A program made the position numbers and the translations under genes. From Candidatus Omnitrophota bacterium (GTDB taxonomy: Bacteria; Omnitrophota; Gorgyraeia; Gorgyraeales; Gorgyraeaceae), in contig JBAZEP010000007.1 of the NCBI GenBank assembly GCA_041653835.1, forward strand, positions 1 to 55,119: a stretch of 55,119 nucleotides of DNA. Reading direction: 5' to 3'. A model generated the notes under the pieces. That model was given only the letters and a program-made list of their open reading frames with translations. It had not been told where the DNA came from and did not search any database. Shown piece after piece: positions 12,365 through 36,285 of the stretch (its first letter is position 1; the number at the start of each line of letters is the position of its first letter).

Positions 12365-12375
12365 GTGTTTGTATT

Positions 12376-13307: not shown

Positions 13308-13336
13308 AGTTAACTTCGCATGCTCAAAACAGTCAA
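13308..13336 (-). promoter_or_regulatory. Weak internal promoter candidate directly after first flippase
   Basis: Minus strand TTGACT (13336-13331), 17-nt spacer, TTAACT (13313-13308); GGGAG SD-like motif before ATG at 13284. Confidence 0.3.
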
Positions 13337-13338
13337 AC

Positions 13339-16474: not shown

Positions 16475-17944
16475 TTAGATCTTAGAACCTGGATTATAAT
16501 ATCTGTTAAATTTAAATAAAATAGCTATTTCAAATGGAAACAAAAAAAACATATTCTTCAGCCTGAATTTCGCTAAATAATAAAAAACTTTCTTCCCTAT
16601 AGACCTTATTAGAGACGAGCTTTTAGAGTGCGTCAGTAATTTGCCGTATTTATCTATTCTGTAAAATAATATCCTTGTCTTTTCATCCGCCCATGGAAGC
16701 CAGGATAACGGCATAGAACTACCAAATGAGTCATAAATATCGTATCCTTCGGTACAAAGAGGGGGTTTGAACCCTTCTCTTATTGCAAGCTCATAAGCAT
16801 CTGTGCCGGGATAAGGCAGGAATGTCTGATAAGTTACTACTATGCCAGGGATCATCTTGGATAATTTTAATCCCAGACTGATACTGTCTTTTATTTCTTT
16901 GAGCGTTTCAGTCGGATACCCTATTATCATGGCGCTGGTCACAGCTATATTCTTATATTTTGAAAGTATGGAGAATTTCTCAAGTATCATTTTTCTTGTG
17001 GTGTTTTTATTCATAAGGGAAAGTATCCTGTCGTTGCCGGATTCTATTCCTATGAATACCCTTTTAACGCCCAGATCATTAAGCCTCTTGACAGATTCTT
17101 CTGTGATCTCATCTACTCTTAAAAGGAACTCTGAACAACTTATCCCAATGGCTTTTAATCTGGAAAGTACTTCAAAAGACCTGATCTTATTCACAAAAAA
17201 GTGATCGTCCATGAAAGAAATGGTATTTATCCCGCAATCTTTCTTGAGTTCTCCGATATCTTTCACAACTCTTTCTATAGAATGAACGCGCCATTTTCTC
17301 TTATTAAATATCCTGTTATAGCAGAACGAGCAATCGTGAGGACACCCCCTGGATGTTAAATATATAAAACCTTTTTCTCCAGTGCCAGGTATGTCTAATA
17401 GACATCTTTGCATATTTACAAGAGACCAATCAATAGAGATATCATCTAAGTCCTTGATTATTTCCCGTTCAGGACTAAAAATAAGTTCTTTATCTTTTTT
17501 ATAACCAATACCTTTTACTGAAACTAGGTCCTTGCCACGAGAAAGAGCATCTGCAAGGTCTAACGCTGTCCTCTCGCCCTCTCCTATTACGATCATATCC
17601 ACATAATCCTCGCTTAAAGTCTCTCGCGGTAAAAGCGAAGGATGGATACCTCCCCATACGACACATACCTTGCTATTTAACTTCTTTATTTCCTTTGATA
17701 ATGTAGCTGAATATTTCGTTTGCGGACCAGAGAGAACTGAAAAACCAACAAATAAATAATCATTCTCAGCTATAGTTTTTGCTTTTTTTTGTATATCAGA
17801 CATATTTAGAAATAATGTCGAAGGGATTATTTCCAGGCCTACTTCATAACCATTGTTCTTTAAATAAGAACCCACATAAAGCAACCCCAGAGGATTATAA
17901 ACGCTTTCATTTTCTATTTTTAACAATAATACCTTATTCTTCAT
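16475..17944 (-). CDS. B12-binding-domain radical SAM protein
   Basis: PLGLLYVGSYL, VWGGIHPS, TSRGCPHDCSFC (CxxxCxxC), IGIESG. Confidence 0.9.
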   Translation of the reverse strand: MKNKVLLLKIENESVYNPLGLLYVGSYLKNNGYEVGLEIIPSTLFLNMSDIQKKAKTIAENDYLFVGFSVLSGPQTKYSATLSKEIKKLNSKVCVVWGGIHPSLLPRETLSEDYVDMIVIGEGERTALDLADALSRGKDLVSVKGIGYKKDKELIFSPEREIIKDLDDISIDWSLVNMQRCLLDIPGTGEKGFIYLTSRGCPHDCSFCYNRIFNKRKWRVHSIERVVKDIGELKKDCGINTISFMDDHFFVNKIRSFEVLSRLKAIGISCSEFLLRVDEITEESVKRLNDLGVKRVFIGIESGNDRILSLMNKNTTRKMILEKFSILSKYKNIAVTSAMIIGYPTETLKEIKDSISLGLKLSKMIPGIVVTYQTFLPYPGTDAYELAIREGFKPPLCTEGYDIYDSFGSSMPLSWLPWADEKTRILFYRIDKYGKLLTHSKSSSLIRSIGKKVFYYLAKFRLKNMFFLFPFEIAILFKFNRYYNPGSKI

Positions 17945-17953
17945 GATCCACTC

Positions 17954-19807
17954 TTATATATAACCTTTAAAAAAGTAATACAATATGCCCATATACTCAT
18001 GCATAATGGCCATCCATTGTCCAAATTTTACGTTTTCACTCTTATCATAAAATTGACATTTATCCGCAGGTAAATAGAGAACTTTCACTCCTTTTTTATA
18101 TTTATCAAACACTAATTTGGCCCTTAGCATATTATAAGGCGAAGATACCAATAATATGGAATCCCATCTATTATTATCTATTATTTTTTTGCAAAATATG
18201 ACATTTTCATAAGTGCTGTTCGCATTTTTTTCCAAAATAATGTCTTTTTCCTTGACCCCCATAGACATGGCGAATAGTTTCATGTTTTCCGCATCATTAT
18301 ATTTGTAGACATACCCTGATGAAAACACTATTTTATCCGCAAAACCCTTACTGTAAAGCTCAGCGGCGTATCTTGCTCTCTCTATAGTGCTTTTACCCGG
18401 ACTGCCAGTCTCTCCTACCCCTCCCCCAAACACAACTATCGCTTGAGCCTTTTGAGGCGGCTCAGATATCTCCAAAGGAGCTGCGACCATCCAGATAAAA
18501 GGAGTCTTGAATATCAATAAATATGCTGCCAGGAAGACTAACATAAATCGCAATGCCCTTCTTTTTGCCATGCGATAAAAACTTATCAGCGTCTCTTTCC
18601 ATAGCGCTTCTCTATCTATTTTTTTCTTCTCTATGGCTTTTTCTACCAATTCGCTCATTTTTTCTATACGACTGTCCCAGCTATTATCCTTGGCAGCCGC
18701 GATACGCCTGGCTTTTAACGCCGCATCTTTTTCATCAAGCGCTTTCAGGATATACGCCTTGAAATCATCATTGTCCTTTCCTATATAGACAATATCCTTG
18801 TATTCCCTATTGAACCGTACGACCTCGGGCAAAGCAACGGAGACAACTGGCTTACCCATTGCATGATATTCATTTAATTTTGTAGGGAATACTGTTTCTG
18901 TATATTCACTCAGGACATAAGGTATAATGCACACATCAAAACTATCTACATAGAAAGCCAGCTCTTTATGACTTTTTTTACCTAAAAATATAACATTTTT
19001 AAGCTCTTTCAGGCTAGCTACGTCTGTTTGAAGAGCGCCTACGAATAAAAATGTACATTCAGGCATTTGTTCTGCAAGAGACCTCACTAGCCTAAGATCT
19101 ACATGTTTATGCACACCTCCGATGTAGCCTATAATTTTGCCTTTTATATCTCGGATATCACTGGGCCGTTCGCTAAGATCGCTTACCTTGTCCTTCATGA
19201 AAGCCTTGATATTCACCCCGAACGGGAATATAGAAACGTTCTTGTTATATTTTTCACAATGTTTTTTTATCTCTTCTCCCTGCGCGAATATCAAGTCCGA
19301 TCTTTTTATTACCTTTTCTTCCGCTCTATTTATTTTGGACGGGTTCTTTACCAGCTTGCTAAAATCCGCTATACAATAATAAACTACCAACTTACTGTCT
19401 ATATTATTAATCAAGTCTAAGGCGAATCCCGTAGGCAAGAATGTCCATATGACAGGATAATCAAAATCCATTGCTTTCATCCACCTGTTCACGACAGATA
19501 GTACCAGGTATTTATTGACCCATCTTGCTAAACGAGAATAAGGGAACGGCAAAACAAGAGGAGAAAGCACATAGAGATTATCCATTACCTTGCGGATGCC
19601 TTTTACGCCTCTGAACCAGTTCTTTACCCTGTGTATTATACGCGACACATCTCTTGCTCCAGGCGAGCGAATGCCTGTATTTTCTATAAAGAGTACCTTG
19701 TTACCATTCTTGGCAAAAGTCGACATTATCTCTTGGTGCCCCTGCCACATAAAATCCCAGTCAATGGTAGCTATACAGATTATGTTCTGTCCTTTAACTA
19801 TTGGCAT
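17954..19807 (-). CDS. Fusion: GT4/TuaH-like glycosyltransferase + TM helix + DUF218 (YdcF/ElyC/SanA) domain
   Basis: N-term WDFMWQGHQEI, YYCIADF, PTKLNEYHAMGKPVV; TM FMLVFLAAYLLIF; C-term IVVFGGG, ERARYAAELY, LEKNANSTYENV, LVSSPYNMLRA, HEYMGILYY. Confidence 0.85.
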   Translation of the reverse strand: MPIVKGQNIICIATIDWDFMWQGHQEIMSTFAKNGNKVLFIENTGIRSPGARDVSRIIHRVKNWFRGVKGIRKVMDNLYVLSPLVLPFPYSRLARWVNKYLVLSVVNRWMKAMDFDYPVIWTFLPTGFALDLINNIDSKLVVYYCIADFSKLVKNPSKINRAEEKVIKRSDLIFAQGEEIKKHCEKYNKNVSIFPFGVNIKAFMKDKVSDLSERPSDIRDIKGKIIGYIGGVHKHVDLRLVRSLAEQMPECTFLFVGALQTDVASLKELKNVIFLGKKSHKELAFYVDSFDVCIIPYVLSEYTETVFPTKLNEYHAMGKPVVSVALPEVVRFNREYKDIVYIGKDNDDFKAYILKALDEKDAALKARRIAAAKDNSWDSRIEKMSELVEKAIEKKKIDREALWKETLISFYRMAKRRALRFMLVFLAAYLLIFKTPFIWMVAAPLEISEPPQKAQAIVVFGGGVGETGSPGKSTIERARYAAELYSKGFADKIVFSSGYVYKYNDAENMKLFAMSMGVKEKDIILEKNANSTYENVIFCKKIIDNNRWDSILLVSSPYNMLRAKLVFDKYKKGVKVLYLPADKCQFYDKSENVKFGQWMAIMHEYMGILYYFFKGYI

Positions 19808-21230
19808 CCAATTCCTTTCTAAAAAAGTAGCTTGATAATGCTAAAAACGACCTGAACATGCTAATAAAGGCCGTGACATTCTTTATCCTTGCAAGGTGGC
19901 CCAATATTACCCTGATCCTAAAATAAAACCTTTTGAACGCGATCTTATTATATTTTATCAACACCTCTTCACTCAAGCCAAATGGTATGAATGAAGGCTT
20001 TATATGCATATGAACGTCTTCGCTATCTGAAATAAGGCGGCCATATTTATCTAACTGGCTGAATAGCTCCGAGCCTGGAAAAGGAGCAAAATAATTTATT
20101 TTAAAATCATCCAATTTAAGCCTCAAAGAAAATTCTATAGTTTGCCTCAGGTCTTCTTCTGTCTCAAGCGGCAATCCCATCATAAAAAATCCAATAGTCT
20201 TCATGCCGCGCTCTTTGCATATTTTAACTGCTTTTTCTATTTGTTCCAGCCTTATGCCTTTTTTCAGGATATCCAGTACTTTCTGCGATCCGCTTTCTAT
20301 CCCGAATCTTATCTGCCAGCATCCTGCTTTTTTCATTTTGTCGATTATTTCTTTATTTACGCTCGACACCCTTCCCAAGCAAGACCAGCTTATCTTCATC
20401 TTTGAATCCATAAGAAGATCGCAGAATTCCAGGATACGTTTTTTCGAGACTATGAACTCATCATCATTTATCCTGATATCCCTTATCCCGTGATTATAAT
20501 AAAGGTCTTTTATCATACCCAATATATACTCTGGGCTGTGCGTCCTGTAGCGGTTCCCAAATACGCTCCTGTCGCAAAAAGTGCACATGTAGGGGCACCC
20601 TCTCGAAGTAACAATAGAAAAAGAAGGGAAATTATTCACAGCATATGCAGTAGGGATATAATGTTTTTTTATGTCGGGTAACAGGTCCCATGCCGGTATA
20701 GGCAATAAATCCAGGTCTTCTAAAAGTTCTCTTCGAGCAGTAGAGATCAACGAGCCATTTTTTCTATACGTGATGCCCTTTACACCTGAAAGGTCCTTAT
20801 TTTTTTCCAAAGCATCTAATAGTTCGATTATGGTCTTGTCCCCTTCGCCTATCACACCTATATCGAATTGAGGATATTTATTCATGACTTCTTCGTGAGT
20901 TGCAGCAATATGAGGCCCTCCTAAAATAATAATGCTTTCAGGCGCTTTTTTCTTTATCATATCAGCTAATTTTGCAGCATTGCGGATTGCTAATGTAACA
21001 GAACTAATCCCTACGTATTTAGGCTTCTTGGCTATTACAATATCCAACGCCTGATCAAACGTCAGGCCCAAAACCGGCATATCCAGGATCTCGGTCTCGT
21101 GTCCAGCTTTTCTCGTAACTGCCGCTAAATAACATAACCCGAGCAATGCTTCGCTGCTCCCTCCGGCTGCAAGTTTCCCGTACATCTCTTTTGCGCTCAA
21201 CGGAGGGCTTATAAATAGTATCTTGGGCAT
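19794..21230 (-). CDS. B12-binding-domain radical SAM protein
   Basis: LGLCYLAAV, ILGGPH, GEGD, TSRGCPYMCTFC, FGIESGSQ. Confidence 0.92.
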   Translation of the reverse strand: MPKILFISPPLSAKEMYGKLAAGGSSEALLGLCYLAAVTRKAGHETEILDMPVLGLTFDQALDIVIAKKPKYVGISSVTLAIRNAAKLADMIKKKAPESIIILGGPHIAATHEEVMNKYPQFDIGVIGEGDKTIIELLDALEKNKDLSGVKGITYRKNGSLISTARRELLEDLDLLPIPAWDLLPDIKKHYIPTAYAVNNFPSFSIVTSRGCPYMCTFCDRSVFGNRYRTHSPEYILGMIKDLYYNHGIRDIRINDDEFIVSKKRILEFCDLLMDSKMKISWSCLGRVSSVNKEIIDKMKKAGCWQIRFGIESGSQKVLDILKKGIRLEQIEKAVKICKERGMKTIGFFMMGLPLETEEDLRQTIEFSLRLKLDDFKINYFAPFPGSELFSQLDKYGRLISDSEDVHMHIKPSFIPFGLSEEVLIKYNKIAFKRFYFRIRVILGHLARIKNVTAFISMFRSFLALSSYFFRKELDANS

Positions 21231-21241
21231 TATAAATATCC

Positions 21242-22183
21242 TTATTTACTTAAAACTTTTTCAATGCATACTGAATTATCTTCTCTCTTAAGCATGAGCA
21301 TGAACTCTACTACCAGGCCTATTCCTATTAGCTGTACTCCCAGGATCATCAAAAGCGCGCCAAATAAAAGCATCGCAGAATGGCCAATATGCCCTACCAT
21401 CAGCCCGCGGATAGTAAAAAAGCTATCCAGTAAAAAACCTGAAAAGAATAAGACTATCCCGAAAGAACCAAATAAATGAAGCGGTCTTTTAGAGTATCTG
21501 GTTATAAAAAGAGTAGTTAAGAGGTCCAAAAAACCGTGCAAGAAGCGCGTAGGGCCATATTTTGATCGCCCATAGACACGCGGGTGATTGCCTACTTTTA
21601 CTTCAGATATCTTGAATCCCTTATCCAACATTAATAACGGAATGAACCTGTAAAGGTCTCCATAAAAATTGATCTCTTTCAACGCTTCTCTGCGATAAGC
21701 CTTGAGCGGACAGTTTATATCCCTTAGGCTGACTTTACTAGAAAACCTGACAAGGCTATTGAAGACCTTTGAAGTAAAACTCCGGAAAAATCCGCTTTTA
21801 CCCTGATGTTTCCAGCCGCTGACCAGGTCATAACCCTCTTTTATCTTTTCCAGCAATACAAGTATATCCTCGGGTTCATCCTGAAGATCGCCGTCCATAG
21901 TGACTATGATCTCTCCTTTTGACAGATTGAAACCGCACGAGTAAGCTGCTGCTTTACCAAAATTCTTGCGGAACTTTATCACCCTTACCTTGTTATCAGA
22001 TCCATGGATATCGCTCAATATAGAAAAACTATTATCAGTACTGCCATCATCAATAAATAATATCTCGTACTCTAGGCCTGAGCCCGACAATACCCCTGTA
22101 AGTTTTTTATGCAGGATACCCAGGCTTTCGGCTTCATTATAAACAGGGATGACTACTGAAAGATAAATCGATCTAGTGGGCAC
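21242..22183 (-). CDS. GT2 ArnC/GtrB-like undecaprenyl-phosphate glycosyltransferase with two C-terminal TM helices
   Basis: IPVYNE, DDGSTD, RKNFGKAAA, MDGDLQDEP, DINCPLKAYR, RVYGRSKYG. Confidence 0.88.
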   Translation of the reverse strand: MPTRSIYLSVVIPVYNEAESLGILHKKLTGVLSGSGLEYEILFIDDGSTDNSFSILSDIHGSDNKVRVIKFRKNFGKAAAYSCGFNLSKGEIIVTMDGDLQDEPEDILVLLEKIKEGYDLVSGWKHQGKSGFFRSFTSKVFNSLVRFSSKVSLRDINCPLKAYRREALKEINFYGDLYRFIPLLMLDKGFKISEVKVGNHPRVYGRSKYGPTRFLHGFLDLLTTLFITRYSKRPLHLFGSFGIVLFFSGFLLDSFFTIRGLMVGHIGHSAMLLFGALLMILGVQLIGIGLVVEFMLMLKREDNSVCIEKVLSK

Positions 22184-23555
22184 ATTGACCTCCTTGATAT
22201 TTGTTAACGATAGCTACGCTATAAGAAAATGCTAAAGCAAAGAAAAACCATACGAATCTAAAATTCATTATATCCATGTCCATGCTTTGTACCAGAAAAC
22301 CTATGCCTACCGCAAAGAACGTGTTCAGCATAAGTTTTTCACCAGCCTCTTTTGCTATTTTACTGCAATCCATGATCTTTTTAAACATGAAAAACCATAG
22401 AAGGCATAGCGCACTAAAACCTATCAGCCCAGTCTGGCTAAGCTGCCCTAAAAAAGTAGAGTGAGGATCAAAAGCCCTGAAATGCCTGGGTAATATTCTT
22501 TGGTTCTCTAATTTCACTATCTCATCATTATACATGCCTACTCCGATACCGAAAAAAGGCTTTTCAAGCCACATCCTTATAGAAGCTTTTTTCAATAAAG
22601 AGTATGCTGTATCAAGATAATCAAAATGGATATCAAACCCTTTTATTTCATCTGTGTTCAGGGGATAAGACCTGCCGTTATCTGCGAAGTTTTCATTAAT
22701 GTAAGATGTTTTATTGACCTTGATATTCGCTACCTCCCACCTCGAAACCAGCAATATGCTGATGCCAAAAATAACTATAAAACCTAAAAGAAATATCTTC
22801 ATCGCATTAACATATCTGGAAGGCTGCAAATGACGCAACACAAGATACAAAGCTATAGAGATGCCTAACCATCCTCGTGAAAAAGTAAGGAACAACACTA
22901 AGAAGAACAATAGAAGCGCTATTTTAAGCCAGCGCCTATCAATTTTATCCCTTATGACTAGAAAAGTCACTGTGAAGGGAATAGCAATTGTCAAATAACT
23001 GCTAAGGAACTTCGCATTTATCAAAAACGTTGAATAGACGCGATAAATATGGCCTATGTAAGGAAAATCCATATATTCTTTTACAAGAAATGTCTTTATA
23101 TTAAAAAATGTGGCTAAAATAAAACCTAAAAGCCCTAGAGCACTTATGACCACACTTGTAATCAACCAGACCAAGATAAGTTTCTCTATCGATCTCTTAT
23201 CTTTTAATACATTCAAAAACACCACGAAAATAAATACGCCGTAGGACATAGCTATGAATTCAACTAAACTCTTGTTAAGATCAGCTGAATTCAATAAAGA
23301 TAAGGCGCAAGAAACAAGATAAAATATCAGTATCCAAAAATATTTAAAAAAATAGAACTTTTCTTCTTTCTTCAAAAGCTTCACGATCCATACAAAAAAT
23401 AAAAGCATGAAAAATATATCGAATACCTGTAATTTTGCAGCAAAAGACAAGCCGAATAAAGGCTTTTCAGGAGTATTGAACATCAACGGGATAATAGCTA
23501 CTAATAATGCCGTCATAAAAAATAATGATCTTGATATTCTGTCTTTCATATTCAC
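22173..23555 (-). CDS. O-antigen ligase / Wzy polymerase family membrane protein
   Basis: About 10-11 TM segments, LTFSRGWLGI, large loop with PFFGIGVG and HSTFLGQLSQTGLIG (Wzy_C-type motif). Confidence 0.85.
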   Translation of the reverse strand: MNMKDRISRSLFFMTALLVAIIPLMFNTPEKPLFGLSFAAKLQVFDIFFMLLFFVWIVKLLKKEEKFYFFKYFWILIFYLVSCALSLLNSADLNKSLVEFIAMSYGVFIFVVFLNVLKDKRSIEKLILVWLITSVVISALGLLGFILATFFNIKTFLVKEYMDFPYIGHIYRVYSTFLINAKFLSSYLTIAIPFTVTFLVIRDKIDRRWLKIALLLFFLVLFLTFSRGWLGISIALYLVLRHLQPSRYVNAMKIFLLGFIVIFGISILLVSRWEVANIKVNKTSYINENFADNGRSYPLNTDEIKGFDIHFDYLDTAYSLLKKASIRMWLEKPFFGIGVGMYNDEIVKLENQRILPRHFRAFDPHSTFLGQLSQTGLIGFSALCLLWFFMFKKIMDCSKIAKEAGEKLMLNTFFAVGIGFLVQSMDMDIMNFRFVWFFFALAFSYSVAIVNKYQGGQCAH

Positions 23556-23559
23556 CTCG

Positions 23560-24144
23560 TTAAACTTCGCATATGGCTATCATCCACGGGAATGAGATCA
23601 TGAGCTTTATTTTTTTGTTAAAATACGGCTTTAATAACTTTAAAAATCCCTTGGGCCCCCAGTTCCATACATGCTCGGGCGTGTTCCCGAAAGCAGTTAT
23701 ATGCCTGAATCTTAAAAAATTACATATACGAAAATATGGCTCAAAAGGAACGCTATAAATACAATACTTGCCAGCGACTCGCTTTGTTTCCATTATCGCT
23801 TTTTCCATATCAGGCAGATGCTCCAATACTTCAAGGGCCAAAACAAGTTCGAATTCTTTGGAAGCGTAATCTAAACTATGAATATCCCCTTTCCTGAGAT
23901 CAAAGTAAACATTGTGACTTCTTGCTTCTTTTATCGCTTCTTCATCTATATCTATTCCACATATATGCAGCTTATCGTTTTTAGATATCAGGTACTTGCC
24001 TACCATGCCTTCTCCGCAGCCCGCATCCAGTATGCGCGTGGTATTTGCTTTGCTTATGGTATTAGCTATATTTTTTAAAAAATTATTCACCAATGCCCGC
24101 TGGACGATATTCTTATTATTATATTTTTTTAAATTGCCTCTCAT
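23560..24144 (-). CDS. Class I SAM-dependent methyltransferase
   Basis: ILDAGCGEG, GIDID, LALEVLEHL. Confidence 0.88.
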   Translation of the reverse strand: MRGNLKKYNNKNIVQRALVNNFLKNIANTISKANTTRILDAGCGEGMVGKYLISKNDKLHICGIDIDEEAIKEARSHNVYFDLRKGDIHSLDYASKEFELVLALEVLEHLPDMEKAIMETKRVAGKYCIYSVPFEPYFRICNFLRFRHITAFGNTPEHVWNWGPKGFLKLLKPYFNKKIKLMISFPWMIAICEV

Positions 24145-24150
24145 ATGTCC

Positions 24151-24882
24151 TTATTTTTTAATAATAATATTTTTCAATTTAGCTAATAAATGCCAGATGC
24201 AGAAATCACTATTATCTATGGCATTACACCCGATATAGGGCTCAAAACCATCTAACGGCTTATTCTTTTCAATGAAAGACCTGTCATTTGCGATCTTATC
24301 TGTCCAGGCTTTCGGATTTTTCGAAGCTATGCAAAAGATATAGACTGATGAATTCTTATGGCTATTAAAACTCAGGTACAATGGCGTCATGGCATTATCT
24401 TTGAACAAACGCTCTATGGTCAATGGTGTAAATCTCCAGTAATCCCCGAACTCAGAATGCATTTGCTGCAAGAACGGCACTACCACTATGGCCACATCCT
24501 TGGTCATCGAGCAAAGATTCCTGAACGCCTTATTTACATCAAAGATATGCTCCAGCACTGTATGGCTAAAAACCACGTCAAACCTATTCAATAACTCTCG
24601 AGGGATGTCTTTTTCCATATCCAGGAAGATCTCGTTCTCATACCCCTGAAAACCCATTGCTTCGGACTTGAAATTAGTGATCGTGTAAGCACTGGCCTTG
24701 ACAAAATAATCTTTATAATAGCCTCCTTCTTTATCCTCATCTTTCCACCCGCTTATATTCGCAATATGGCCTGAAAAAAGAGACGCGAATTTACGCAACT
24801 CTTTATTGGACCATTTACGAGGTAACCGATATTTTCTATCTATAAATAAACTTTTCATAGCAGCATCCTTTCTATGATTCAA
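24151..24882 (-). CDS. Methyltransferase-like protein (divergent motif I)
   Basis: FDVVFSHTVLEHI, VPFLQQMH..FGDYWRFT resemble type-11 methyltransferases in glycan loci. Confidence 0.7.
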   Translation of the reverse strand: MNHRKDAAMKSLFIDRKYRLPRKWSNKELRKFASLFSGHIANISGWKDEDKEGGYYKDYFVKASAYTITNFKSEAMGFQGYENEIFLDMEKDIPRELLNRFDVVFSHTVLEHIFDVNKAFRNLCSMTKDVAIVVVPFLQQMHSEFGDYWRFTPLTIERLFKDNAMTPLYLSFNSHKNSSVYIFCIASKNPKAWTDKIANDRSFIEKNKPLDGFEPYIGCNAIDNSDFCIWHLLAKLKNIIIKK

Positions 24883-27024: not shown

Positions 27025-28520
27025 CCTAGTGTGGTCCTTTTTATGGCATATCTTGCGAGCCTATTAATGAATCCAAGAGGATGCTTTGACATATATGAAT
27101 AGCGTAACGAGAGTTTTTTAAATATCGAACTCTGGGCCTTATTGTAATCATCTACGTACTTTGACATATCCTTTAGCTGTTTCTTAAAATCCTCCGTATC
27201 CATTGCATTCGCAAAATTATGACTTCCTCCTTTTGTCTCTACTACATCCCAATCCACGTTTTTAAGAAGTCCTAGCTCTTCACAACGCTCGTAAAGCTGG
27301 GTCCCTGGATAGGGCGCAAAGACATTAAGGAATAATCTGGAAGGCTTTATTTTTTTCATAAAAGAAAAAGTTTCTATCATGTCCGCTTTTGTCTCGTCTG
27401 GGAATCCTACTATAAAATACGCTTTCCACGGCATCTTTGCTTTTTTTAGAAGGTCTTGAGCTTCCAGTACTTTATCCAGCGATATGTTTTTATCTATCTG
27501 GTCCAGAGTTTTTTTACTGCCTGATTCTATGCCTAAAAATACTGTAAAGCACCCTGCTTGTTTCATTTTTTTAAGCGCTTCGCTAGACAAAAGATCTACC
27601 CTGGTAGCGCAGCTCCAGAGAAACGGACTTTTCTTGCTTATCAGTATATCGCAAAACCTGTAAAAATAATCTTTGTTCAATGTAAACGTATCATCCCATA
27701 TATGGAACTCCCTGCTTCCATAATTTTTCTGTATATGTTCCATTTCCGCTGCAACATTATCTGGACTACGGAAACGGATTGTCTTTCCCCAGACATTTTT
27801 AACGCTACAGAACTTGCAATTGAACGGACAGCCTCTGGAGCCTATCAGGTCTGTCATGAATGTAGAAAACACAGCTTTCTGATAATTATGCACATTAAGC
27901 AGTCCACCCCTATCTGGAAAAGGCAACGTATCTATATTTTCTATCATAGGAGCTTTGTCATTAAATATAAATTCGTTTCCTTTCTTAGTTACGATGCTTC
28001 CTATATCCTTGAATGCTTTTTCACCTTTCAGAAAATCCATAAGGCCTTTCAGGGGTATCTCCCCTTCGCCTGTGATCACGAAATCAATGTTTTCCGTAAA
28101 ACAAGATATAGGATCCACTGATGCATGCGGCCCGCCTATCACGACTTTTATATCCTTATCAATGGCTTTTACCAACTCGGCTATCCTTTTTGTCACGCCC
28201 AATGCAACGGTCACTGTCCCAATGCCAACGACAGCTGGTTTTTCAGTAGCTATAACATGCCCGATCTCTTTCCATATTGGGTCATCATAATCATATATTC
28301 TTTTCTTCACTTGCTGCGATAAGGTCAAATTCGCAAGCTGACCCCCATAGCTTGCTTCTTTAGCCTTTTCATCCGGAGCAGGTATCTCTGCATTATATAT
28401 CACTGCCTGGTGCCCAACTTGTTTAGCCATAGCGGACAGATAGCCCAGGCCCAGGGGAAAATATATATTTTCGATATTCTTGAACCTTATATAGGGCGGA
28501 TTTATGAATAATATTTTCAT
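27009..28520 (-). CDS. B12-binding-domain radical SAM protein
   Basis: PLGLGYLSA, IGGPHAS, GEGE, SRGCPFNCKFC, LGIESGS. Confidence 0.92.
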   Translation of the reverse strand: MKILFINPPYIRFKNIENIYFPLGLGYLSAMAKQVGHQAVIYNAEIPAPDEKAKEASYGGQLANLTLSQQVKKRIYDYDDPIWKEIGHVIATEKPAVVGIGTVTVALGVTKRIAELVKAIDKDIKVVIGGPHASVDPISCFTENIDFVITGEGEIPLKGLMDFLKGEKAFKDIGSIVTKKGNEFIFNDKAPMIENIDTLPFPDRGGLLNVHNYQKAVFSTFMTDLIGSRGCPFNCKFCSVKNVWGKTIRFRSPDNVAAEMEHIQKNYGSREFHIWDDTFTLNKDYFYRFCDILISKKSPFLWSCATRVDLLSSEALKKMKQAGCFTVFLGIESGSKKTLDQIDKNISLDKVLEAQDLLKKAKMPWKAYFIVGFPDETKADMIETFSFMKKIKPSRLFLNVFAPYPGTQLYERCEELGLLKNVDWDVVETKGGSHNFANAMDTEDFKKQLKDMSKYVDDYNKAQSSIFKKLSLRYSYMSKHPLGFINRLARYAIKRTTLGWNCH

Positions 28521-28530
28521 ACGATGATAA

Positions 28531-29697
28531 TTATTTTTTTATTTTTACAGCTGAGTTCTTTGGCAATGCTATTATATTTCTTAAGCTCTTTTCTATTACA
28601 CTAGCCGCAAATATAGACCCTTTGTTGTTAAAATGCCCGCAATCGTATATATAATCCTTTGATTTCGGGATAGCCTTATCCAGATCTATGACTAATATGC
28701 GGTTCTTAACTCCGACATCCCTTATTTCCTGGTTGAGCATATCATAAATCTCTTTTAGCGCTTTATAGTCCACTCCTTGGCCTTCTAGTTTTTTTAACCC
28801 TTCTGTTACTACTATGTCTGGATCATCTGTCAATGCATTCTGCTGCGTCATCAATACAGGGGTGATATTCCTCGCCTCGCATATATTGATAAATGTCTGA
28901 AGGTTCATCCTGAACTCGCCCAGAATATGTTCTTTATCTATATTTATTTTTCGTTTTCTATTGAACTGGAACTCGTCATTCTCTACCCTTGAAGTGATAT
29001 TAAAATTAAATATCCCATTCAATTTATAATATAAATGCGGTATAGTAGAATCTTTTATCTTTCTTAAGATATCCGAGGGCCTGGCTTTATATATCGTGGA
29101 TCTATAAACATTGTCATTCCAATATGTCCCCTCATGTAGCAACACGCTTAGATCATTAAAAATATGCATCATCACTACTATGTCTGGTTTAAGCAGGATC
29201 ACTTTGTTCAATAGTATATTCAAAGAGTGCAGCGAATTATTTCCAAATACCCCTGAATTATAAGAATTGGTCTTTAAGCCTATATTTTTCTCTATCGATC
29301 TACCTGCTAAATACGGGAATCTGTTCTCCTCGTCTACCCTCAGGCACTCAGTAGTAGAACCTCCAAGAAAAACTATGGCAAGATCAGGTTTATCATGGAT
29401 CTTTGATGGCATGATAAATCCATTCTCGTCTGTCCGGAAAGAATAATCCTTTGGCTTTGGCTTCAGTTGATCTACGTTATCATAATCAATATCATGAAAA
29501 ACTCCTGACAGTAATGGCTTGTGTTCCCTAAGCCTTATATATCTATCAGTAGAAAAATCTATTATGGTTTTTTCATACGACAGTATGCTCTCTGCCATGC
29601 AGACAACTATAAGCATAAATATCGAACAAACAAAGAACAGTGTTATTACAGGGTGCTGTTCGAACCAACTTTTACTATTTTTAGGTTCACTTTGCAT
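28531..29697 (-). CDS. Membrane-anchored SGNH/GDSL hydrolase (possible O-acetyl transferase/esterase)
   Basis: N-terminal TM helix; FLGGSTTE (block I), NSGVFG, IFND, DCGHF (DxxH). Confidence 0.8.
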   Translation of the reverse strand: MQSEPKNSKSWFEQHPVITLFFVCSIFMLIVVCMAESILSYEKTIIDFSTDRYIRLREHKPLLSGVFHDIDYDNVDQLKPKPKDYSFRTDENGFIMPSKIHDKPDLAIVFLGGSTTECLRVDEENRFPYLAGRSIEKNIGLKTNSYNSGVFGNNSLHSLNILLNKVILLKPDIVVMMHIFNDLSVLLHEGTYWNDNVYRSTIYKARPSDILRKIKDSTIPHLYYKLNGIFNFNITSRVENDEFQFNRKRKINIDKEHILGEFRMNLQTFINICEARNITPVLMTQQNALTDDPDIVVTEGLKKLEGQGVDYKALKEIYDMLNQEIRDVGVKNRILVIDLDKAIPKSKDYIYDCGHFNNKGSIFAASVIEKSLRNIIALPKNSAVKIKK

Positions 29698-30406
29698 GTT
29701 TCTTCTCCGCTATTAAGCAACAGATCATCAAATATTCATCCTGATATCCTCTGGTGCGGCTAAGTAAACAAAATACGAGGCCCAGCATGTGGACTAACAT
29801 ATCCAAGGTCCTGAGGCTCCCTTTAAATCTAGGTTTTTGGATAATAGTAGCCAAGGTGCTCCAAATATTCCCAAGAGTCTCGCAGCGTATTATATTGAAA
29901 TCCTTAAAACTCTCGGACAATGCTGAAGGAGAAAATCTGTAGAGATCATCTGGAAAAGGATGAAAATAATAAGTGAATGGGACTGTCAAAAATATCTTAC
30001 CTCCAGGCTTTAGCACCCTTTTGATCTCGCGTATTGCTTTACCCGGGTCAATTACGTGCTCTAAGACGTTCAAGCAAACAATACCGTCCACGGAATTATC
30101 TTCAAGATGCATATTCAATACATCTAAATACATCATATCCGGATCATCTTTTGACAGATTACTTAAAATATACTCACTAGCAGAAACAGCAAATCTCTTA
30201 TATCTATTATTTTTGCTAGCTCCAAGCTCGATGACCTTGCCTTTCAATAAGGGCATGAAATCCTTGATAAACCCTTCCTCCATTATCCTGATCGGTGTTT
30301 TTATCCCGAATAAGTAATCCCTGACCGATCTAAAACTCATCGGCAACTTACGATTAGTCAGGCATAAGCCTTTTTCTTTGTAATATTTATTTAGGTCCAT
30401 TGCCAA
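29687..30406 (-). CDS. Class I SAM-dependent methyltransferase (type 11)
   Basis: VIELGAS, DNSVDGIVCLNVLEHV, RVLKPGG, HPFPDDLYRFS. Confidence 0.85.
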   Translation of the reverse strand: MAMDLNKYYKEKGLCLTNRKLPMSFRSVRDYLFGIKTPIRIMEEGFIKDFMPLLKGKVIELGASKNNRYKRFAVSASEYILSNLSKDDPDMMYLDVLNMHLEDNSVDGIVCLNVLEHVIDPGKAIREIKRVLKPGGKIFLTVPFTYYFHPFPDDLYRFSPSALSESFKDFNIIRCETLGNIWSTLATIIQKPRFKGSLRTLDMLVHMLGLVFCLLSRTRGYQDEYLMICCLIAEKKHAK

Positions 30407-31832
30407 GCCTTGCTTTTTTATGAAATAATTCTTTTATAAAATGAATTAATATTTTTATATCACCCATGTTCCTTGCGCAGAAAATTTTCTTTAAACCTTT
30501 GAAAAGCAGCCCCAATAAACTGTTTTGCCGCCTTGCGACATAGAATTTTATATCCGCATGGGACATAAGGCCATTGCTATACATAGGCAATGACGGATTA
30601 GAGCCTAATAGTTCCGCGTCTTTGAACTCATAGGGGCTATTCCATGAAAAATCCTTGGGCATTATACCTCTTTCTTTAGCGAGGTATTCAAACTTAGTCA
30701 TAGGGTATATCCTGGTGAAGCTATAAAAAGCGACCACTTTTTTCTTTTTTAATCTATCTATAAGATCAAAGGTCAATTTCAGGTCATCTTCTGTCTCCTC
30801 TGGAAGGCTTACCATGAAAGTGCATTTTACTACCATTCCCTCGTTAAGCGCCACATTAGTAGCCTCGAGCAGGTTCAAAGACAACGTTTTGTTCATGGCA
30901 CGTAATACCTTTTCGCTTCCAGATTCAGCGCCGATGCCTATTGAAACGCATCCAGCCTTACGCATTAATTTTATATTTTCTGCATTTATAGTATTTACAG
31001 GAGCTCTAGCAAACCATTTTATGTCCAATCCTCTTTTGATGATCAAAGAACAAATATCCCTTAAATGCGCTTCATCTATAGTGAAAGAATCATCCCAAAA
31101 ATTAAATCCATCTATTTTATATTTATTAACAATATATTCCATTTCCGCCACGACATTTTCAGGAGAACGCTTTCTGACCTTGCGCAGGCCAAGCGCCCCG
31201 TTAGCGCAAAAATAACAATCATAGGGACAACCTCGTAAACTTATTATACCTGCAGCCCGCGTCTTATACTCTCCTTCAACAGTCACTATATACTTGTCCA
31301 TATCTACAAGATGCCTGGCTGGTAAAGGCAAAGTATTTAGGTCGCTAATGAATGGCCTGTCAGGAGTTTCTATTATACTCCCTTCCTTGCTTCTATAGAT
31401 AATACCCTGGATCTTGCCCAGATCATCTGTTTTGGAGTATGCTTCTAGAAACTCGGGCGTCGTGATCTCTCCCTCGCCTTTTACAATAATATCCACATCC
31501 ACTATTTTATCTATCGCGTCTCTGGACGTTAGAGTGGCATGCGGGCCGCCCCAGATGGTAAGGACACTTGGCAACGCTTCCTTTATCATTTTGAAGAGCT
31601 CTATCACTATAAATCTATTTTCCGTAGTTCCTGTAATACCAACCGCATCAGGCTTAATACTGATGATATTCCTTAAAACACCTTTATTATCAAGTTCTTC
31701 GTTTTGTGAATCTATAACTATCACTTCATGCCCTGCGGCCTCTAAGGTAGAAGCAACATATAAAAGCCCTAAAGGCGCGGTATGCATCTTTTTTAAATAA
31801 TTATCACGAGCAGACACTAATACGATCTTCAT
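30387..31832 (-). CDS. B12-binding-domain radical SAM protein
   Basis: Start MKIVLVS at 31832 (AGGAG SD); PLGLLYVAS, WGGPHAT, GEGE, RGCPYDCYFC, GAESGS. Confidence 0.92.
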   Translation of the reverse strand: MKIVLVSARDNYLKKMHTAPLGLLYVASTLEAAGHEVIVIDSQNEELDNKGVLRNIISIKPDAVGITGTTENRFIVIELFKMIKEALPSVLTIWGGPHATLTSRDAIDKIVDVDIIVKGEGEITTPEFLEAYSKTDDLGKIQGIIYRSKEGSIIETPDRPFISDLNTLPLPARHLVDMDKYIVTVEGEYKTRAAGIISLRGCPYDCYFCANGALGLRKVRKRSPENVVAEMEYIVNKYKIDGFNFWDDSFTIDEAHLRDICSLIIKRGLDIKWFARAPVNTINAENIKLMRKAGCVSIGIGAESGSEKVLRAMNKTLSLNLLEATNVALNEGMVVKCTFMVSLPEETEDDLKLTFDLIDRLKKKKVVAFYSFTRIYPMTKFEYLAKERGIMPKDFSWNSPYEFKDAELLGSNPSLPMYSNGLMSHADIKFYVARRQNSLLGLLFKGLKKIFCARNMGDIKILIHFIKELFHKKARLGNGPK

Positions 31833-33111
31833 CTTTCTCCTTACGAATAAAATTATGAACAATTATTATTAAAATAGTATTAAATATACAAAAATTTAAT
31901 AAAACAGCTATAGAAGCACCTATATATCCATACCTTGGTATTAAAAAAAAACAAGCAAATGCAATAAATACCGCACTAAAAAAACCTAACGCTGCGGATA
32001 TATTTGGATACCCTATCCCTAATATAAACGATCTTGCCCAAAAAACAAAGCTTGCATACACTCCTCCACCTATTAGTATATAAATCGCGAAACGCGCTGG
32101 CTCGTATTCTTTACCATAAAAAGCCATGATAAGGGGTTTGGCAAACAGAACGATGCCAGTTGCCGCAACAACCGCAAACGTCCCAATAAATACAGAGCTC
32201 TTAATCAAAAGATTTTTTATTTCCGTTTTTTTCTTCTGATTCCACAACTCCGCAATCCTGGGGTAAATATTGACTACAAGCGGTTCATATATAACCGTTA
32301 GAATCCCGACTATAGTAAGCGCAATTTTGTAGTAACCTACTTCCGCAAGCGGCCTAAAATATCCCAGCAACAATATGTCAAGCCTGCTATTTAATGCCTT
32401 GAACGTGGTTGAAAGATACACATGTAAATTAAAGTATAAAAATGCTTTAATGGGTTCAAAAGATTTTACGATTCTGATTCCAGAAAGCCTCTTATGAATC
32501 AATTTGATTGCTAAAACCATATATAAAATCGACGACATAGCAGTGACACCAATAAAGACAAATAACACATTTTTTAATCCGGCTGAAATAAAAAAAAGTA
32601 TCCCTAATAACTTCATAAGCTTTGAAAAAACCATCAAAAAACCAAAGTAATTGAACTTTTTAAATACTTGAAACACAGCGTTTGAGGTAGATTGAACGGA
32701 ATCGCAAAGCGGTAATAGCGCGTAAATCTTAAGAAAATACTCAATGCGCGTATCATGAAAAATCTTTTCTCCTATTAGTCCGGCTGTAAAAAATAATATT
32801 GCCGAGATTATAGTACCGAGTATAAAATCCAATAAATAACTCGTTTTTATTACTAAAAGAGCTTTGCCTTTCTCTTTATCTATATATTCCGATAAAAATT
32901 TGATCGTAGCTTCGTTAGTGTTTATAGTAAAAGATAATTTTGTAAACTCTATTATGGATATTAGAAGAGCTAGTAATCCATAAGTTTCTGCACCAAGTCC
33001 TCTTGCTAGAACTATTGCCGTTATAAAAGTTAGGCCATAAGAAATATAGCTAGAACTGTAAAGGAAAATCGAGTCTTTTATAAATTTTTGTTTTAGGTAC
33101 TTATAAAACAT
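31804..33111 (-). CDS. wzx: Second Wzx/MOP-family flippase
   Basis: Multi-TM; LARGLGAETYG, RLDILLLGYF...EVGYYKIA...YPRIA, IPRYGYIGASIA. Confidence 0.88.
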   Translation of the reverse strand: MFYKYLKQKFIKDSIFLYSSSYISYGLTFITAIVLARGLGAETYGLLALLISIIEFTKLSFTINTNEATIKFLSEYIDKEKGKALLVIKTSYLLDFILGTIISAILFFTAGLIGEKIFHDTRIEYFLKIYALLPLCDSVQSTSNAVFQVFKKFNYFGFLMVFSKLMKLLGILFFISAGLKNVLFVFIGVTAMSSILYMVLAIKLIHKRLSGIRIVKSFEPIKAFLYFNLHVYLSTTFKALNSRLDILLLGYFRPLAEVGYYKIALTIVGILTVIYEPLVVNIYPRIAELWNQKKKTEIKNLLIKSSVFIGTFAVVAATGIVLFAKPLIMAFYGKEYEPARFAIYILIGGGVYASFVFWARSFILGIGYPNISAALGFFSAVFIAFACFFLIPRYGYIGASIAVLLNFCIFNTILIIIVHNFIRKEKDEDRISVCS

Positions 33112-33116
33112 AAGGC

Positions 33117-34313: not shown

Positions 34314-34349
34314 TTTATTTGTCCAGACTTGTCCTATTTTTCCTATTTT

Positions 34350-35162: not shown

Positions 35163-35187
35163 GGATCAAGGAACCTCCTGTTCAATA

Positions 35188-36285
35188 TCACGCATGGTTG
35201 CACCCCTTGCACACTGAAGGCGCATTCCCGTTATTCAGCTCATGTCTAAATTGAACATAAGCTGGGCTATTCCAGATCTGTCTGATATTATTATTAAAAA
35301 TATTCCCAAAATTGAATTCTTCATAATTAGGCCTGATACAGCAAGGAGTAACATAACCGTTCCATGAGACATAAACGCCTTTTTTATACCAGAAACATTT
35401 GCCTCTTTGCTCCTCGGGTAAGACAAAATCAACATGTACTGCTTTTGTCTTAGCTAAAAGCATTGCTTTTTTTAGATGAACTGCATTTTCCCCATCCATG
35501 ACCAGATTCCTTTCTGATAATTTCTGCCTTTTATCAGCATGCTTGCTGTCTACGCTTACCCAATTCTGAAGGTTCACGATATTAATATGATAGACTCCAA
35601 GATCGCTTATCAAACCTATCAATGGGCAAAGGTCTTCGACATTAGTTTTCTCCATGACAAAATTCACTGCTATATCAGCATTGCTATTGTTAGCCGAGAT
35701 GAGCAGCCGGATGCCCTTTAATATACTGTCCAGGCAATCCACTCCCCTTATCTCCTTGATCTTATCCTTTCCGAAAGCATCCAGTGATATCTCTATTTTA
35801 TCAAAATATTTTATCATATAGCGAGCATTCTCCTCCGTGATCAGAGTAGCATTAGAAGCGATATAAGTGGTGATGTTCTTTTTCTTCAAGTGCTCCGCCA
35901 TTTTAAAAAGCGACGCGTTCAATAAAGGCTCTCCCAGCCCCTGCAATTTCACTTCTTTTAAAAATGGGAACTGCCCGACCACTTTAATGAAATCATTGAA
36001 TTCCATGTCCCCTGATGCGCTAAGAACATCCCGGGTACAATTCCTGCACTTCATGTTACATCGTGACGTAGGCTCTAATTGAAGATAGCTTGGGAAAGTA
36101 TATTTATGCTTATTAGCTGCCGCGAAGCATGATTCCATACACCTCATCGCAATATATGGCATCCCAAACCTTGCCTCTCTGTGAACGCGGCCGAATACAT
36201 GTTTCTTTAGAAAACTATCTAATCCCTTATGCTTTATGAGGATATGAGCTGCTTTTAATTTATTTGCTATTGTATGTGATTTCAT
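35188..36285 (-). CDS. Radical SAM protein with C-terminal SPASM/twitch domain
   Basis: EPTSRCNMKCRNC, GLGEPLLN, ISLD; CFW...GYVTPCC...GNI...CKGC. Start moved to Met at 36285 to avoid a 113-nt overlap. Confidence 0.88.
   Translation of the reverse strand: MKSHTIANKLKAAHILIKHKGLDSFLKKHVFGRVHREARFGMPYIAMRCMESCFAAANKHKYTFPSYLQLEPTSRCNMKCRNCTRDVLSASGDMEFNDFIKVVGQFPFLKEVKLQGLGEPLLNASLFKMAEHLKKKNITTYIASNATLITEENARYMIKYFDKIEISLDAFGKDKIKEIRGVDCLDSILKGIRLLISANNSNADIAVNFVMEKTNVEDLCPLIGLISDLGVYHINIVNLQNWVSVDSKHADKRQKLSERNLVMDGENAVHLKKAMLLAKTKAVHVDFVLPEEQRGKCFWYKKGVYVSWNGYVTPCCIRPNYEEFNFGNIFNNNIRQIWNSPAYVQFRHELNNGNAPSVCKGCNHA

Follow-up and report, generated by a model that had tools for sequence, protein, structure and literature searches.

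Why would a locus for a bacterial surface polysaccharide encode six radical S-adenosylmethionine (SAM) enzymes? The question is raised by a 55,119-nt stretch of a Candidatus Omnitrophota genome (GenBank assembly GCA_041653835.1, contig JBAZEP010000007.1, positions 1 to 55,119), referred to below as the window. A surface-polysaccharide gene cluster of ~53 kb, which derives from an uncultured bacterium of groundwater, occupies this 55-kb window, in which all substantial open reading frames (ORFs) lie on the minus strand, and six out of 19 consecutive genes within 20 kb code for radical SAM proteins. This far exceeds any plausible background: the binomial P is ~1e-6 if radical SAM genes account for at most 2% of genes genome-wide, which is our assumption. 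We conclude that the locus is of the Wzx/Wzy polysaccharide type and uses a widespread, biochemically uncharacterized toolkit of radical SAM tailoring enzymes, which probably puts unusual sugars (C-methylated, oxidized or rearranged) on the surface of anaerobes. That the radical SAM enzymes tailor the glycan is likely. The complete reading, in which all six would be sugar-tailoring enzymes of the encoded pathway and would contribute BtrN-like oxidation, B12-type C-methylation and an Arn/Gtr-like side branch, has a probability of about 0.5 in our estimate from sequence comparison.

The radical SAM enzymes and their neighbors

Between positions 1782 and 43103 intergenic gaps measure 63 nt or less, and start-codon analysis showed that start and stop codons of neighboring genes often overlap. 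The operon-like array comprises ~11 glycosyltransferases (GTs), two Wzx, Wzy, Wza, Wzi and nucleotide-sugar enzymes. Wzx flippases, Wzy polymerase, Wza channel and Wzi were recognized by Pfam domains (Polysacc_synt twice, Wzy_C, Poly_export with SLBB, Caps_assemb_Wzi). Judged by this gene content, the window is one long, co-oriented surface-polysaccharide locus of that type. An initial annotation of the sequence had described the radical SAM enzymes as interleaved with glycosyltransferases in a single polysaccharide locus, and both do lie in the tightly packed array. The six enzymes are:

16475-17944, minus strand: B12-domain radical SAM enzyme 1 (B12-rSAM-1), 489 aa; Pfam Radical_SAM 89.9 bits, B12-binding 65.8 bits; motif CPHDCSFC
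19794-21230, minus strand: B12-rSAM-2, 478 aa; Pfam B12-binding and Radical_SAM; motif CPYMCTFC
26029-27024, minus strand: BtrN-like twitch/SPASM enzyme 1 (SPASM-1), 331 aa; Pfam Radical_SAM and SPASM
27009-28520, minus strand: B12-rSAM-3, 503 aa; Pfam B12-binding and Radical_SAM; motif CPFNCKFC
30387-31862, minus strand: B12-rSAM-4, 491 aa; Pfam B12-binding and Radical_SAM; motif CPYDCYFC
35188-36285, minus strand: BtrN-like twitch/SPASM enzyme 2 (SPASM-2); Pfam Radical_SAM and SPASM

Number and position of these genes are as first annotated; their Pfam domains score above the gathering cutoffs and the CX3CX2C motif is intact in all six proteins. In each of the four B12 proteins the B12-binding domain (PF02310) precedes the radical SAM domain and reaches 62-75.5 bits at a gathering cutoff of 32.1. 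With 27-37% mutual identity the four are old paralogs. Domains and motif, and for B12-rSAM-2 also the modeled fold, place them in class B of the radical SAM enzymes. Binding of cobalamin and methyl transfer to unactivated C or P atoms, activities that no sequence motif diagnoses, are predicted for the four proteins.

The remaining two enzymes had been taken for SPASM proteins. Both pass the cutoffs for Radical_SAM and SPASM (PF13186, 54.3 and 61.0 bits, cutoff 21.5), but the C-terminal domain of each contains only five Cys instead of the seven of a full SPASM domain (common pattern C-X17-CC-X42-C-X2-C). Four conserved Cys (C255, C273, C315, C318) align with the single auxiliary cluster of BtrN, and the domain is therefore better described as twitch-like. 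The two proteins share 22% identity with each other. The ORF of SPASM-2 runs to 36372; according to the start-codon analysis its true start is likely the ATG at 36285, where the initial annotation also ends. The comparison with BtrN made initially gained weight in both sequence and structure searches. A profile of the SPASM-1 family (A2) matched BtrN (4m7t) with E 7e-31 and all four auxiliary-cluster Cys aligned, and an AlphaFold2 model (pLDDT 87.3) retrieved BtrN, BlsE and DesII, in that order, as the top three Foldseek matches. For SPASM-2, too, BtrN was the best sequence match in the Protein Data Bank (PDB). The best NCBIfam model for the SPASM-type proteins was TIGR04317 (131-137 bits, cutoff 380); a curated model for BtrN itself does not exist. 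By sequence and modeled fold the pair thus appears most closely related to BtrN, which is a statement of resemblance only. By analogy, our best guess is that the two enzymes would use radical chemistry to oxidize a sugar alcohol to the ketone, or would catalyze decarboxylation or deamination of a related kind.

The radical SAM genes are accompanied by methyltransferases:

3715-4695, minus strand: class I methyltransferase (Pfam Methyltransf_23)
12376-13284, minus strand: class I methyltransferase (Pfam), in a segment swapped in a sister locus
15568-16470, minus strand: class I methyltransferase (Pfam), directly downstream of B12-rSAM-1
23560-24144, minus strand: class I methyltransferase (Pfam), 194 aa
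24151-24882, minus strand: methyltransferase-like, degenerate; best Pfam score 21.4 bits vs 27
29687-30406, minus strand: class I methyltransferase; Pfam Methyltransf_11 53.4 bits
34350-35162, minus strand: FkbM-family methyltransferase; Pfam Methyltransf_21; NCBIfam fkbM_fam 64.8 bits, cutoff 37.7

Seven had been counted at first. Six are solid, five of class I and the FkbM-type protein, but in 24151-24882 a glycine-rich SAM motif I was not found and no Pfam cutoff was reached; this protein is a distant paralog of 29687-30406. Two of the solid methyltransferases are closely linked to B12-domain genes: 15568-16470 lies 4 nt downstream of B12-rSAM-1, and 29687-30406 overlaps B12-rSAM-4 by 20 nt and is translationally coupled to it. 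A further overlap connects the two kinds of radical SAM genes, B12-rSAM-3 overlapping the start of SPASM-1.

Relatives in other genomes and selection on the locus

We found more than 2700 homologs of B12-rSAM-2 at E <= 1e-20. In species-representative genomes, 600 pattern matches were checked, of which at least 581 proved to be relatives. The orthogroup extends over Planctomycetia, Elusimicrobia, Omnitrophota, Nitrospinota, Nitrospirota, Desulfobacteria, Geobacterales, anammox lineages and the candidate phyla radiation (CPR) among bacteria, and is also present in DPANN archaea, with the homologs concentrated in known anaerobic lineages. Among the matches listed, the closest species-representative locus belongs to a metagenome-assembled genome (MAG) of the Planctomycetia with 57% protein identity.

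Gene context was surveyed in 64 loci, each no shorter than 12 kb; their flanks of ±10 kb were annotated by means of the window's own proteins, a deliberately crude and conservative procedure. A glycosyltransferase of any kind was present within ±10 kb of the B12-rSAM-2 ortholog in 84% of the loci, a GT2 in 78%, a class I methyltransferase in 44%, a SPASM-type enzyme in 23% and a DegT aminotransferase in 22%. More than half of the loci (55%) contained a second B12-rSAM, and 28% three or more. Direct neighbors were recorded in 79 loci and were most often a GT2 (29), followed by unannotated proteins with multiple transmembrane (TM) helices (16), B12 paralogs (13), methyltransferases (8) and SPASM-type enzymes (6). 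Ten of the adjacent multi-TM proteins were searched against Pfam: five matched PMT/PMT_2 (two of them above the gathering cutoff), one DUF2079 and one a combination of TM helices and tetratricopeptide repeats. Judging from these matches, most of the multi-TM neighbors are GT-C-like. The genome-neighborhood check suggested with the initial annotation thus places the orthogroup in glycosyltransferase-rich loci across many phyla.

Furthermore, a recurrent set of genes was recognized by Pfam around the orthologs in Omnitrophota, Elusimicrobia, the Planctomycetia MAG, other contigs and the cultured Pelotalea chapellei: B12-rSAMs, SPASM-type enzymes, GT2, GT4, PMT_2 proteins, short-chain dehydrogenases/reductases (SDRs), flavin adenine dinucleotide (FAD)-dependent amine-oxidase-like proteins, AsnB and a fusion of GT4 with DUF218. 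The fusion recurs in loci L008/L009 and L089, and DUF218 stands alone in P. chapellei; the amine-oxidase-like protein is a partner in L006, L089, L015, L016, L036, L058 and L083. In P. chapellei DSM 13688, a cultured strict anaerobe, the genes form a compact operon (L029) in the order B12-rSAM, GT2, methyltransferase, SPASM-type enzyme, an unassigned gene, DUF218 and GT2. A minimal module of GT-C, B12-rSAM, GT2 with two TM helices and methyltransferase is found in the Nitrospirota loci L030 and L033, and methyltransferases of the 23560 type adjoin B12-rSAM-GT2 pairs in L025, L026, L028, L029, L030, L032 and L074. Paralogs resembling B12-rSAM-3 follow genes of the B12-rSAM-2 type in Elusimicrobia (L015, L016, L036, L039, L046), and more distant B12-rSAMs are located between genes for nucleoside diphosphate (NDP)-sugar nucleotidyltransferases, dehydratases and aminotransferases.

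Class I methyltransferase domains are fused to members of the orthogroup at the C-terminus (P0009, P0031) or the N-terminus (P0065, P0079, P0092). These fusions are independent Rosetta-stone events, and they mirror the coupling of B12-rSAM-4 with 29687-30406 and of B12-rSAM-1 with 15568-16470 in the window. A further candidate, an apparent DegT::B12-rSAM fusion (P0085), was rejected as a probable frameshift in a long-read contig of 3x coverage, although a DegT gene does lie beside it.

Two further observations were made in the surveyed loci. Five or six B12-rSAM paralogs occur within 20 kb in MAGs of Planctomycetales (L088), Planctomycetia (L050) and Omnitrophota (L058) and in metagenome contigs (L107, L112, L117); in such arrays the paralogs are often consecutive and lie beside SDR and DegT genes. 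In a Thermodesulfobacteriota MAG an ORF of 3246 aa (L073, 116-9856, plus strand) is located directly upstream of the B12-rSAM ortholog.

For the other enzymes the survey yielded less. SPASM-1 gave 23 matches in a word-indexed search, among them a long contig (L089) with the same toolkit. A metagenome scan for B12-rSAM-4 returned relatives from the same population only (88% identity), all others being at most 33% identical, and we regard it on this basis as a rare lineage-specific paralog. Taken by sequence context, the association with glycan genes is strong for the B12-rSAM-2 type and reasonable for the SPASM-1 type; for B12-rSAM-1, B12-rSAM-4 and SPASM-2 the presumed link rests mainly on the window locus and its close relatives.

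Such close relatives were found in groundwater metagenome contigs (L001-L003, L090, L091), which agree with the window in gene order and are 89-90% identical to it in nucleotide sequence. In comparison with the ~90%-identical sister locus, dN/dS was 0.05-0.16 for the genes tested, a set that includes three B12-rSAMs and SPASM-1 (B12-rSAM-1, 0.12 against L001; B12-rSAM-3, 0.086; B12-rSAM-4, 0.09-0.10). Low dN/dS and recurrence in independent contigs indicate real genes under purifying selection. The loci differ in one segment (window 11433-13347, L001 17864-19720): its flanks are 89-94% identical, the identity of the GT4 falls to 74%, and the methyltransferase is replaced and reordered relative to L001. 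This difference at 11.4-13.3 kb is a local cassette swap as is typical of serotype variation.

Proposed pathway and alternatives

The proposed function of B12-rSAM-2 draws on the following neighbors:

17954-19807, minus strand: GT4 joined via one TM helix to DUF218 (Pfam); TuaH-like (NCBIfam)
21242-22183, minus strand: GT2 with two C-terminal TM helices (234-253, 261-281); Pfam Glycos_transf_2 114.7 bits
39790-41130, minus strand: GT-C-type membrane protein, 10 TM helices; weak PMT_2 match, 17.7 bits
41127-42449, minus strand: GT-C-type membrane protein; Pfam PMT_2 50.8 bits, above the cutoff of 26.1

B12-rSAM-2 is flanked by the GT2 upstream and the GT4-DUF218 protein downstream. The GT2 matches the NCBIfam model for ArnC over its full length with 176 bits (cutoff 529), and PgfS and AglJ match as well, making it a candidate ArnC/GtrB/PgfS-like polyprenyl-phosphate glycosyltransferase. 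A GT2 with C-terminal TM helices is the architecture of such enzymes, and GT-C proteins use polyprenyl-phosphate-sugar donors. Together with the minimal modules in other genomes, this combination suggests a side branch similar to the Arn and Gtr systems. In this route the GT2 would load a sugar onto polyprenyl phosphate, B12-rSAM-2 would modify the sugar either as nucleotide sugar or on the lipid carrier, and a GT-C enzyme would transfer it to the glycan outside the membrane. The four B12-domain enzymes would most likely methylate unactivated sugar carbons with cobalamin and SAM, in cooperation with class I methyltransferases, which are translationally coupled to them in the window and fused to their orthologs in other genomes. 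The BtrN-like enzymes would most likely act without NAD, either oxidizing a secondary alcohol of a sugar to a ketone or carrying out another one-electron step of this kind, for example a decarboxylation. Cobalamin use, C-methylation, the form of the substrate and the order of steps are what we infer from sequence. We put C-methylation first because most characterized class B enzymes are methylases, some of which act on sugar carbons. By analogy it is, together with cobalamin use, the leading hypothesis, and taken by itself comes somewhat short of even odds. The glycan-tailoring role and the analogy with BtrN hold up well at the level of sequence comparison. The host may plausibly live without oxygen and make use of cobalamin, as suggested by the groundwater source and the anaerobic lineages of the homologs.

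Several observations weigh against this reading. In NCBIfam scans none of the six radical SAM proteins reached the cutoff of a curated family, so that function cannot be transferred. The best scores of the B12 proteins were 134-217 bits at cutoffs of 360-750, with HpnJ, BchE, ApyD, PhpK, HpnR and ladderane-type lipid enzymes among the models matched (cutoffs in bits: BchE 481, HpnJ 578 (577.6), HpnR 650, PhpK 600, rSAM_ladder_B12 360, AprD4 500), and the top matches HpnJ and BchE are not methylases. In the PDB, B12-rSAM-2 is matched best by AprD4, a sugar 1,2-diol dehydratase, both by sequence (E 1.9e-25) and by fold (TM-score 0.73-0.76). AprD4 is not known to use cobalamin and so illustrates that this fold need not imply its use. 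The adjacent GT2s in other loci are a mixed group, with a C-terminal TM helix in just 12 of the 29, and broad context is limited to the orthogroup of B12-rSAM-2 and, thinly, SPASM-1. Among the window ORFs we found no GtrA/ArnEF-type small flippase gene, and cobalamin biosynthesis or uptake genes were not found in the window. Likewise, no initiating phosphoglycosyltransferase and no Wzc kinase were detected (no Bac_transf, Glycos_transf_4 or kinase domain in any window ORF by Pfam). An RmlA-like gene is cut by the right window edge; the locus therefore continues beyond the window, and phosphoglycosyltransferase and Wzc genes may lie there.

The matches just described lead to a different assignment, in which the B12-domain enzymes would tailor the glycan by ring contraction of the HpnJ/OxsB type, giving a carbocyclic or furanose-like unit, or by 1,2-diol dehydration of the AprD4 type, that is deoxygenation; every methyl group would then be the work of the class I and FkbM enzymes. 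AprD4 acts on the pseudodisaccharide paromamine, HpnJ, a putative enzyme of ring contraction, is the top curated family for B12-rSAM-2 (216.7 bits) and follows the GT2-type HpnI on a lipid-linked sugar, and six ordinary methyltransferases are already present in the locus. However, the scores stay far below the cutoffs for HpnJ (577.6) and AprD4 (98.9 bits for B12-rSAM-2, cutoff 500). The sequence match to AprD4 is confined to the radical SAM core, whereas matches to QCMT (9CCB; PMC12931638), TokK, OxsB, HpnJ, BchE and PhpK reach into the B12 domain. These N-terminal matches to cobalamin binders favor a genuine use of cobalamin by B12-rSAM-2. The AlphaFold2 model (pLDDT 87.5) retrieved TsrM, MgmA/QCMT, CysS, OxsB and TokK after AprD4 with TM-scores of ~0.66-0.73; since all solved class B structures score ~0.7, the fold search could not separate methylases from dehydratases or ring-contraction enzymes. 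The majority of characterized class B enzymes are methylases, and the recurrent fusions with methyltransferase domains suit methyl chemistry at least as well. We consider ring contraction or deoxygenation by these enzymes possible, at about one chance in four.

The likeness in NCBIfam to the P-methyltransferases PhpK and Sden_1168, to the enzyme ApyD of ribosomally synthesized and post-translationally modified peptides (RiPPs) and to B12-rSAMs of lipid biosynthesis leaves room for another possibility, namely that the enzymes act not on sugar carbons but on another product of the same locus, such as the anchor (polyprenyl or lipid), a substituent (amino acid or acyl) or a decoration with phosphonate. 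That the locus deals with substituents other than sugars is shown by its AsnB-type amidotransferases and its GDSL-like protein. Against this, Pfam scans of the window revealed no phosphoenolpyruvate mutase, phosphonate genes, precursor peptide or lipid-synthesis genes, the cutoffs of P-methyltransferase, RiPP and lipid families were missed by a factor of 3 to 5, the consistent neighbors are glycosyltransferases and NDP-sugar enzymes, and the twitch enzymes resemble BtrN, BlsE and DesII, which act on sugars. A non-sugar substrate is therefore improbable. Lipid-, hopanoid- and tetrapyrrole-modifying families had been named in the initial annotation as the groups with which the enzymes might cluster instead; the cutoffs of HpnJ, HpnR, BchE and the ladderane-lipid model are not reached. 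A lipid, hopanoid, tetrapyrrole or phosphonate role was rejected, as the window has no supporting genes and the family cutoffs were missed. Finally, the clustering could be incidental, the radical SAM genes being carried along without any part in the pathway, or being in decay, in a surface-polysaccharide island of very high variability. Loci of this kind are mosaic, as the swap at 11.4-13.3 kb in the sister locus illustrates, the GC content varies from 0.34 to 0.45 across the window and a Bro-N gene is located at its left edge. However, dN/dS values of 0.05-0.16 and intact motifs, start and stop codons overlapping with those of neighboring glycan genes, recurrence of the same associations across many phyla and in archaea, and the existence of methyltransferase fusions already disfavor incidental clustering, to which we assign a very low probability.

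Beyond the glycan-tailoring pathway proposed for the window, the distribution of relatives allows a wider proposal, which we hold tentatively and rate well below even odds: the genes could represent a glycan-modification system that is undescribed yet widespread among anaerobes, both bacteria and archaea (including CPR, DPANN, Omnitrophota, Elusimicrobia, anammox Planctomycetes and Geobacterales). B12-rSAMs would remodel sugars linked to polyprenyl phosphate or to a nucleotide, through C-methylation or by contracting the ring. BtrN-like oxidases and methyltransferases, either fused or adjacent, would take part, and GT-C or GT2 enzymes would install the sugars on surface polysaccharides or glycoproteins.

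Further locus content and comparison with known systems

The other genes of the locus with assigned functions include:

5392-11182, minus strand: CDP-sugar cassette (Pfam) of nucleotidyltransferase, 4,6-dehydratase, SDR, acetolactate synthase-like thiamine pyrophosphate (TPP) enzyme and RfbH/E1
13339-14661, minus strand: Wzx-type flippase 1 (Pfam Polysacc_synt)
22173-23555, minus strand: Wzy-type polymerase (Pfam Wzy_C), 10 TM helices
28531-29697, minus strand: GDSL/SGNH-like protein with N-terminal TM helix or signal; Lipase_GDSL_2 31.1 bits, just under the cutoff of 32.9
31804-33111, minus strand: Wzx-type flippase 2 (Pfam Polysacc_synt)
36260-37615, minus strand: FAD-dependent amine-oxidase-like oxidoreductase (Pfam)
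43251-46136, minus strand: long Wza-type exporter with multiple SLBB domains (Pfam Poly_export, SLBB)
46137-47849, minus strand: Wzi (Pfam Caps_assemb_Wzi)

In the cassette at 5392-11182 the RfbH/E1 protein scores 714.6 bits with NCBIfam RfbH (cutoff 423), and the TPP enzyme resembles the large subunit of acetolactate synthase with a score below the cutoff. We take the cassette to resemble the pathway to CDP-3,6-dideoxyhexoses or to yersiniose (YerE-type, two-carbon branch); an E3 reductase gene was not seen. Other nucleotide-sugar and substituent enzymes of the window are Gmd, several SDRs and an AsnB-type amidotransferase. The GDSL/SGNH-like protein is possibly a sugar O-acyl esterase or transferase, going by its domain match.

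The two Wzx-type flippases (24% identical) accompany a single Wzy, and further duplicate pairs are the GT4s at 17954 and 24872 and the methyltransferases at 24151 and 29687. The duplications could reflect two glycans or the fusion of two ancestral sub-clusters. Directly before Wza, where a co-polymerase would be expected, 42474-43103 (minus strand) encodes a protein of 209 aa with two TM helices and a faint Wzz-like match (E 0.13). A soluble protein of 308 aa, like the preceding one without family assignment, (14663-15589, minus strand) is conserved in L001. The UDP-glucose/GDP-mannose dehydrogenase gene at 51105-53864 (minus strand) is split by an intein at ~51597-52937; its product of 919 aa matches Pfam Intein_splicing at residues 310-756 and the homing endonuclease domain LAGLIDADG_3 at 506-558. 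At the left border a Bro-N domain protein (823-1659, minus strand) and a cut-off helix-turn-helix (XRE-like) gene (1-460, minus strand) may be mobile-element or phage remnants that mark the edge of an island.

The initial annotation had spoken of chemistry not characterized in O-antigen or capsule pathways, which appears correct. Two class B reviews, of 2022 and 2026, contain neither the word polysaccharide nor the word glycan. We searched the literature for radical SAM enzymes encoded in clusters for O-antigen, capsule or exopolysaccharide, or in loci of Omnitrophota and Elusimicrobia; only incidental mentions turned up, and no published characterization of the window enzymes was found. What is known of bacterial surface-glycan chemistry comes almost wholly from pathogens that can be cultivated aerobically, with tailoring by NAD-, pyridoxal phosphate- and SAM-dependent (polar) enzymes. 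The locus and its thousands of relatives indicate a routine use of radical chemistry by anaerobes for the sugars of the cell surface. The class B family of radical SAM enzymes is large and mostly of unknown function, and a glycan role would give biological context to one of its biggest uncharacterized orthogroups. It would also predict new sugars (C-methyl, keto, deoxy, carbocyclic) of relevance to phage/host recognition in candidate phyla. P. chapellei DSM 13688 is a cultured, testable carrier of the compact operon. If the wider proposal were true, it would add a new class of substrates to those of the class B radical SAM enzymes and could explain heavily 'methylated' glycans such as the S-layer glycan of Kuenenia. 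This anammox O-glycan is reported to carry up to five methyl groups on six sugars, at positions inferred from mass only (PMC5088730). Together with the presence of the module in anammox relatives (Brocadia, L054; Scalinduaceae, L031) we regard it as a lead and not as evidence.

Among known systems, BtrN, BlsE and DesII share with the two twitch enzymes the radical SAM core and a C-terminal twitch domain whose four Cys have matching spacing, and all three act on carbohydrate-like substrates. In contrast to BtrN, to which they are only ~20% identical, the window proteins are 60-100 residues longer, and they are encoded in a polysaccharide locus instead of an aminoglycoside or nucleoside antibiotic cluster. 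In the Arn (ArnC/ArnD/ArnT) and Gtr (GtrA/B/C) systems, as in the proposed side branch, a GT2 with C-terminal TM helices and a GT-C (PMT_2) enzyme are combined with a modifying enzyme encoded between them; here, however, the modifier is a radical SAM enzyme and not a deformylase, the GT2 stays under the ArnC cutoff and no GtrA/ArnEF flippase was found. The HpnI-HpnK-HpnJ pathway to the hopanoid cyclitol ether provides a precedent for the joint action of glycosyltransferase and radical SAM enzyme on a sugar linked to a lipid (PMC13459092): a GT2-type enzyme places the sugar on the lipid and a B12-domain radical SAM enzyme remodels it. The window differs in that it has neither squalene nor hopanoid genes; polyprenyl phosphate would serve as carrier, and a polysaccharide would be the product. 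AprD4 of apramycin biosynthesis, the best overall PDB match of B12-rSAM-2, acts on a sugar, but the match is limited to the radical SAM core, whereas the N-terminal domains of the window proteins score 62-75 bits with Pfam B12-binding. The class B enzymes GenK, GenD1 and MoeK5 methylate sugar carbons in gentamicin and moenomycin (PMC9204698). These enzymes and Fms7, the class B sugar C-methyltransferases of antibiotic pathways, share with the window enzymes an N-terminal B12-binding domain of the Rossmann type ahead of a radical SAM core with CX3CX2C and are likewise encoded beside glycosyltransferases and ordinary methyltransferases; action on unactivated sugar carbons is what we propose for the window enzymes as well. 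GenK and MoeK5 were compared by description only. Enzymes of the GenK type tailor sugars of actinomycete secondary metabolites, whereas the window enzymes are encoded in a Wzx/Wzy/Wza surface-polysaccharide locus and their relatives, in anaerobes, CPR bacteria and DPANN archaea, in modules linked to GT-C.

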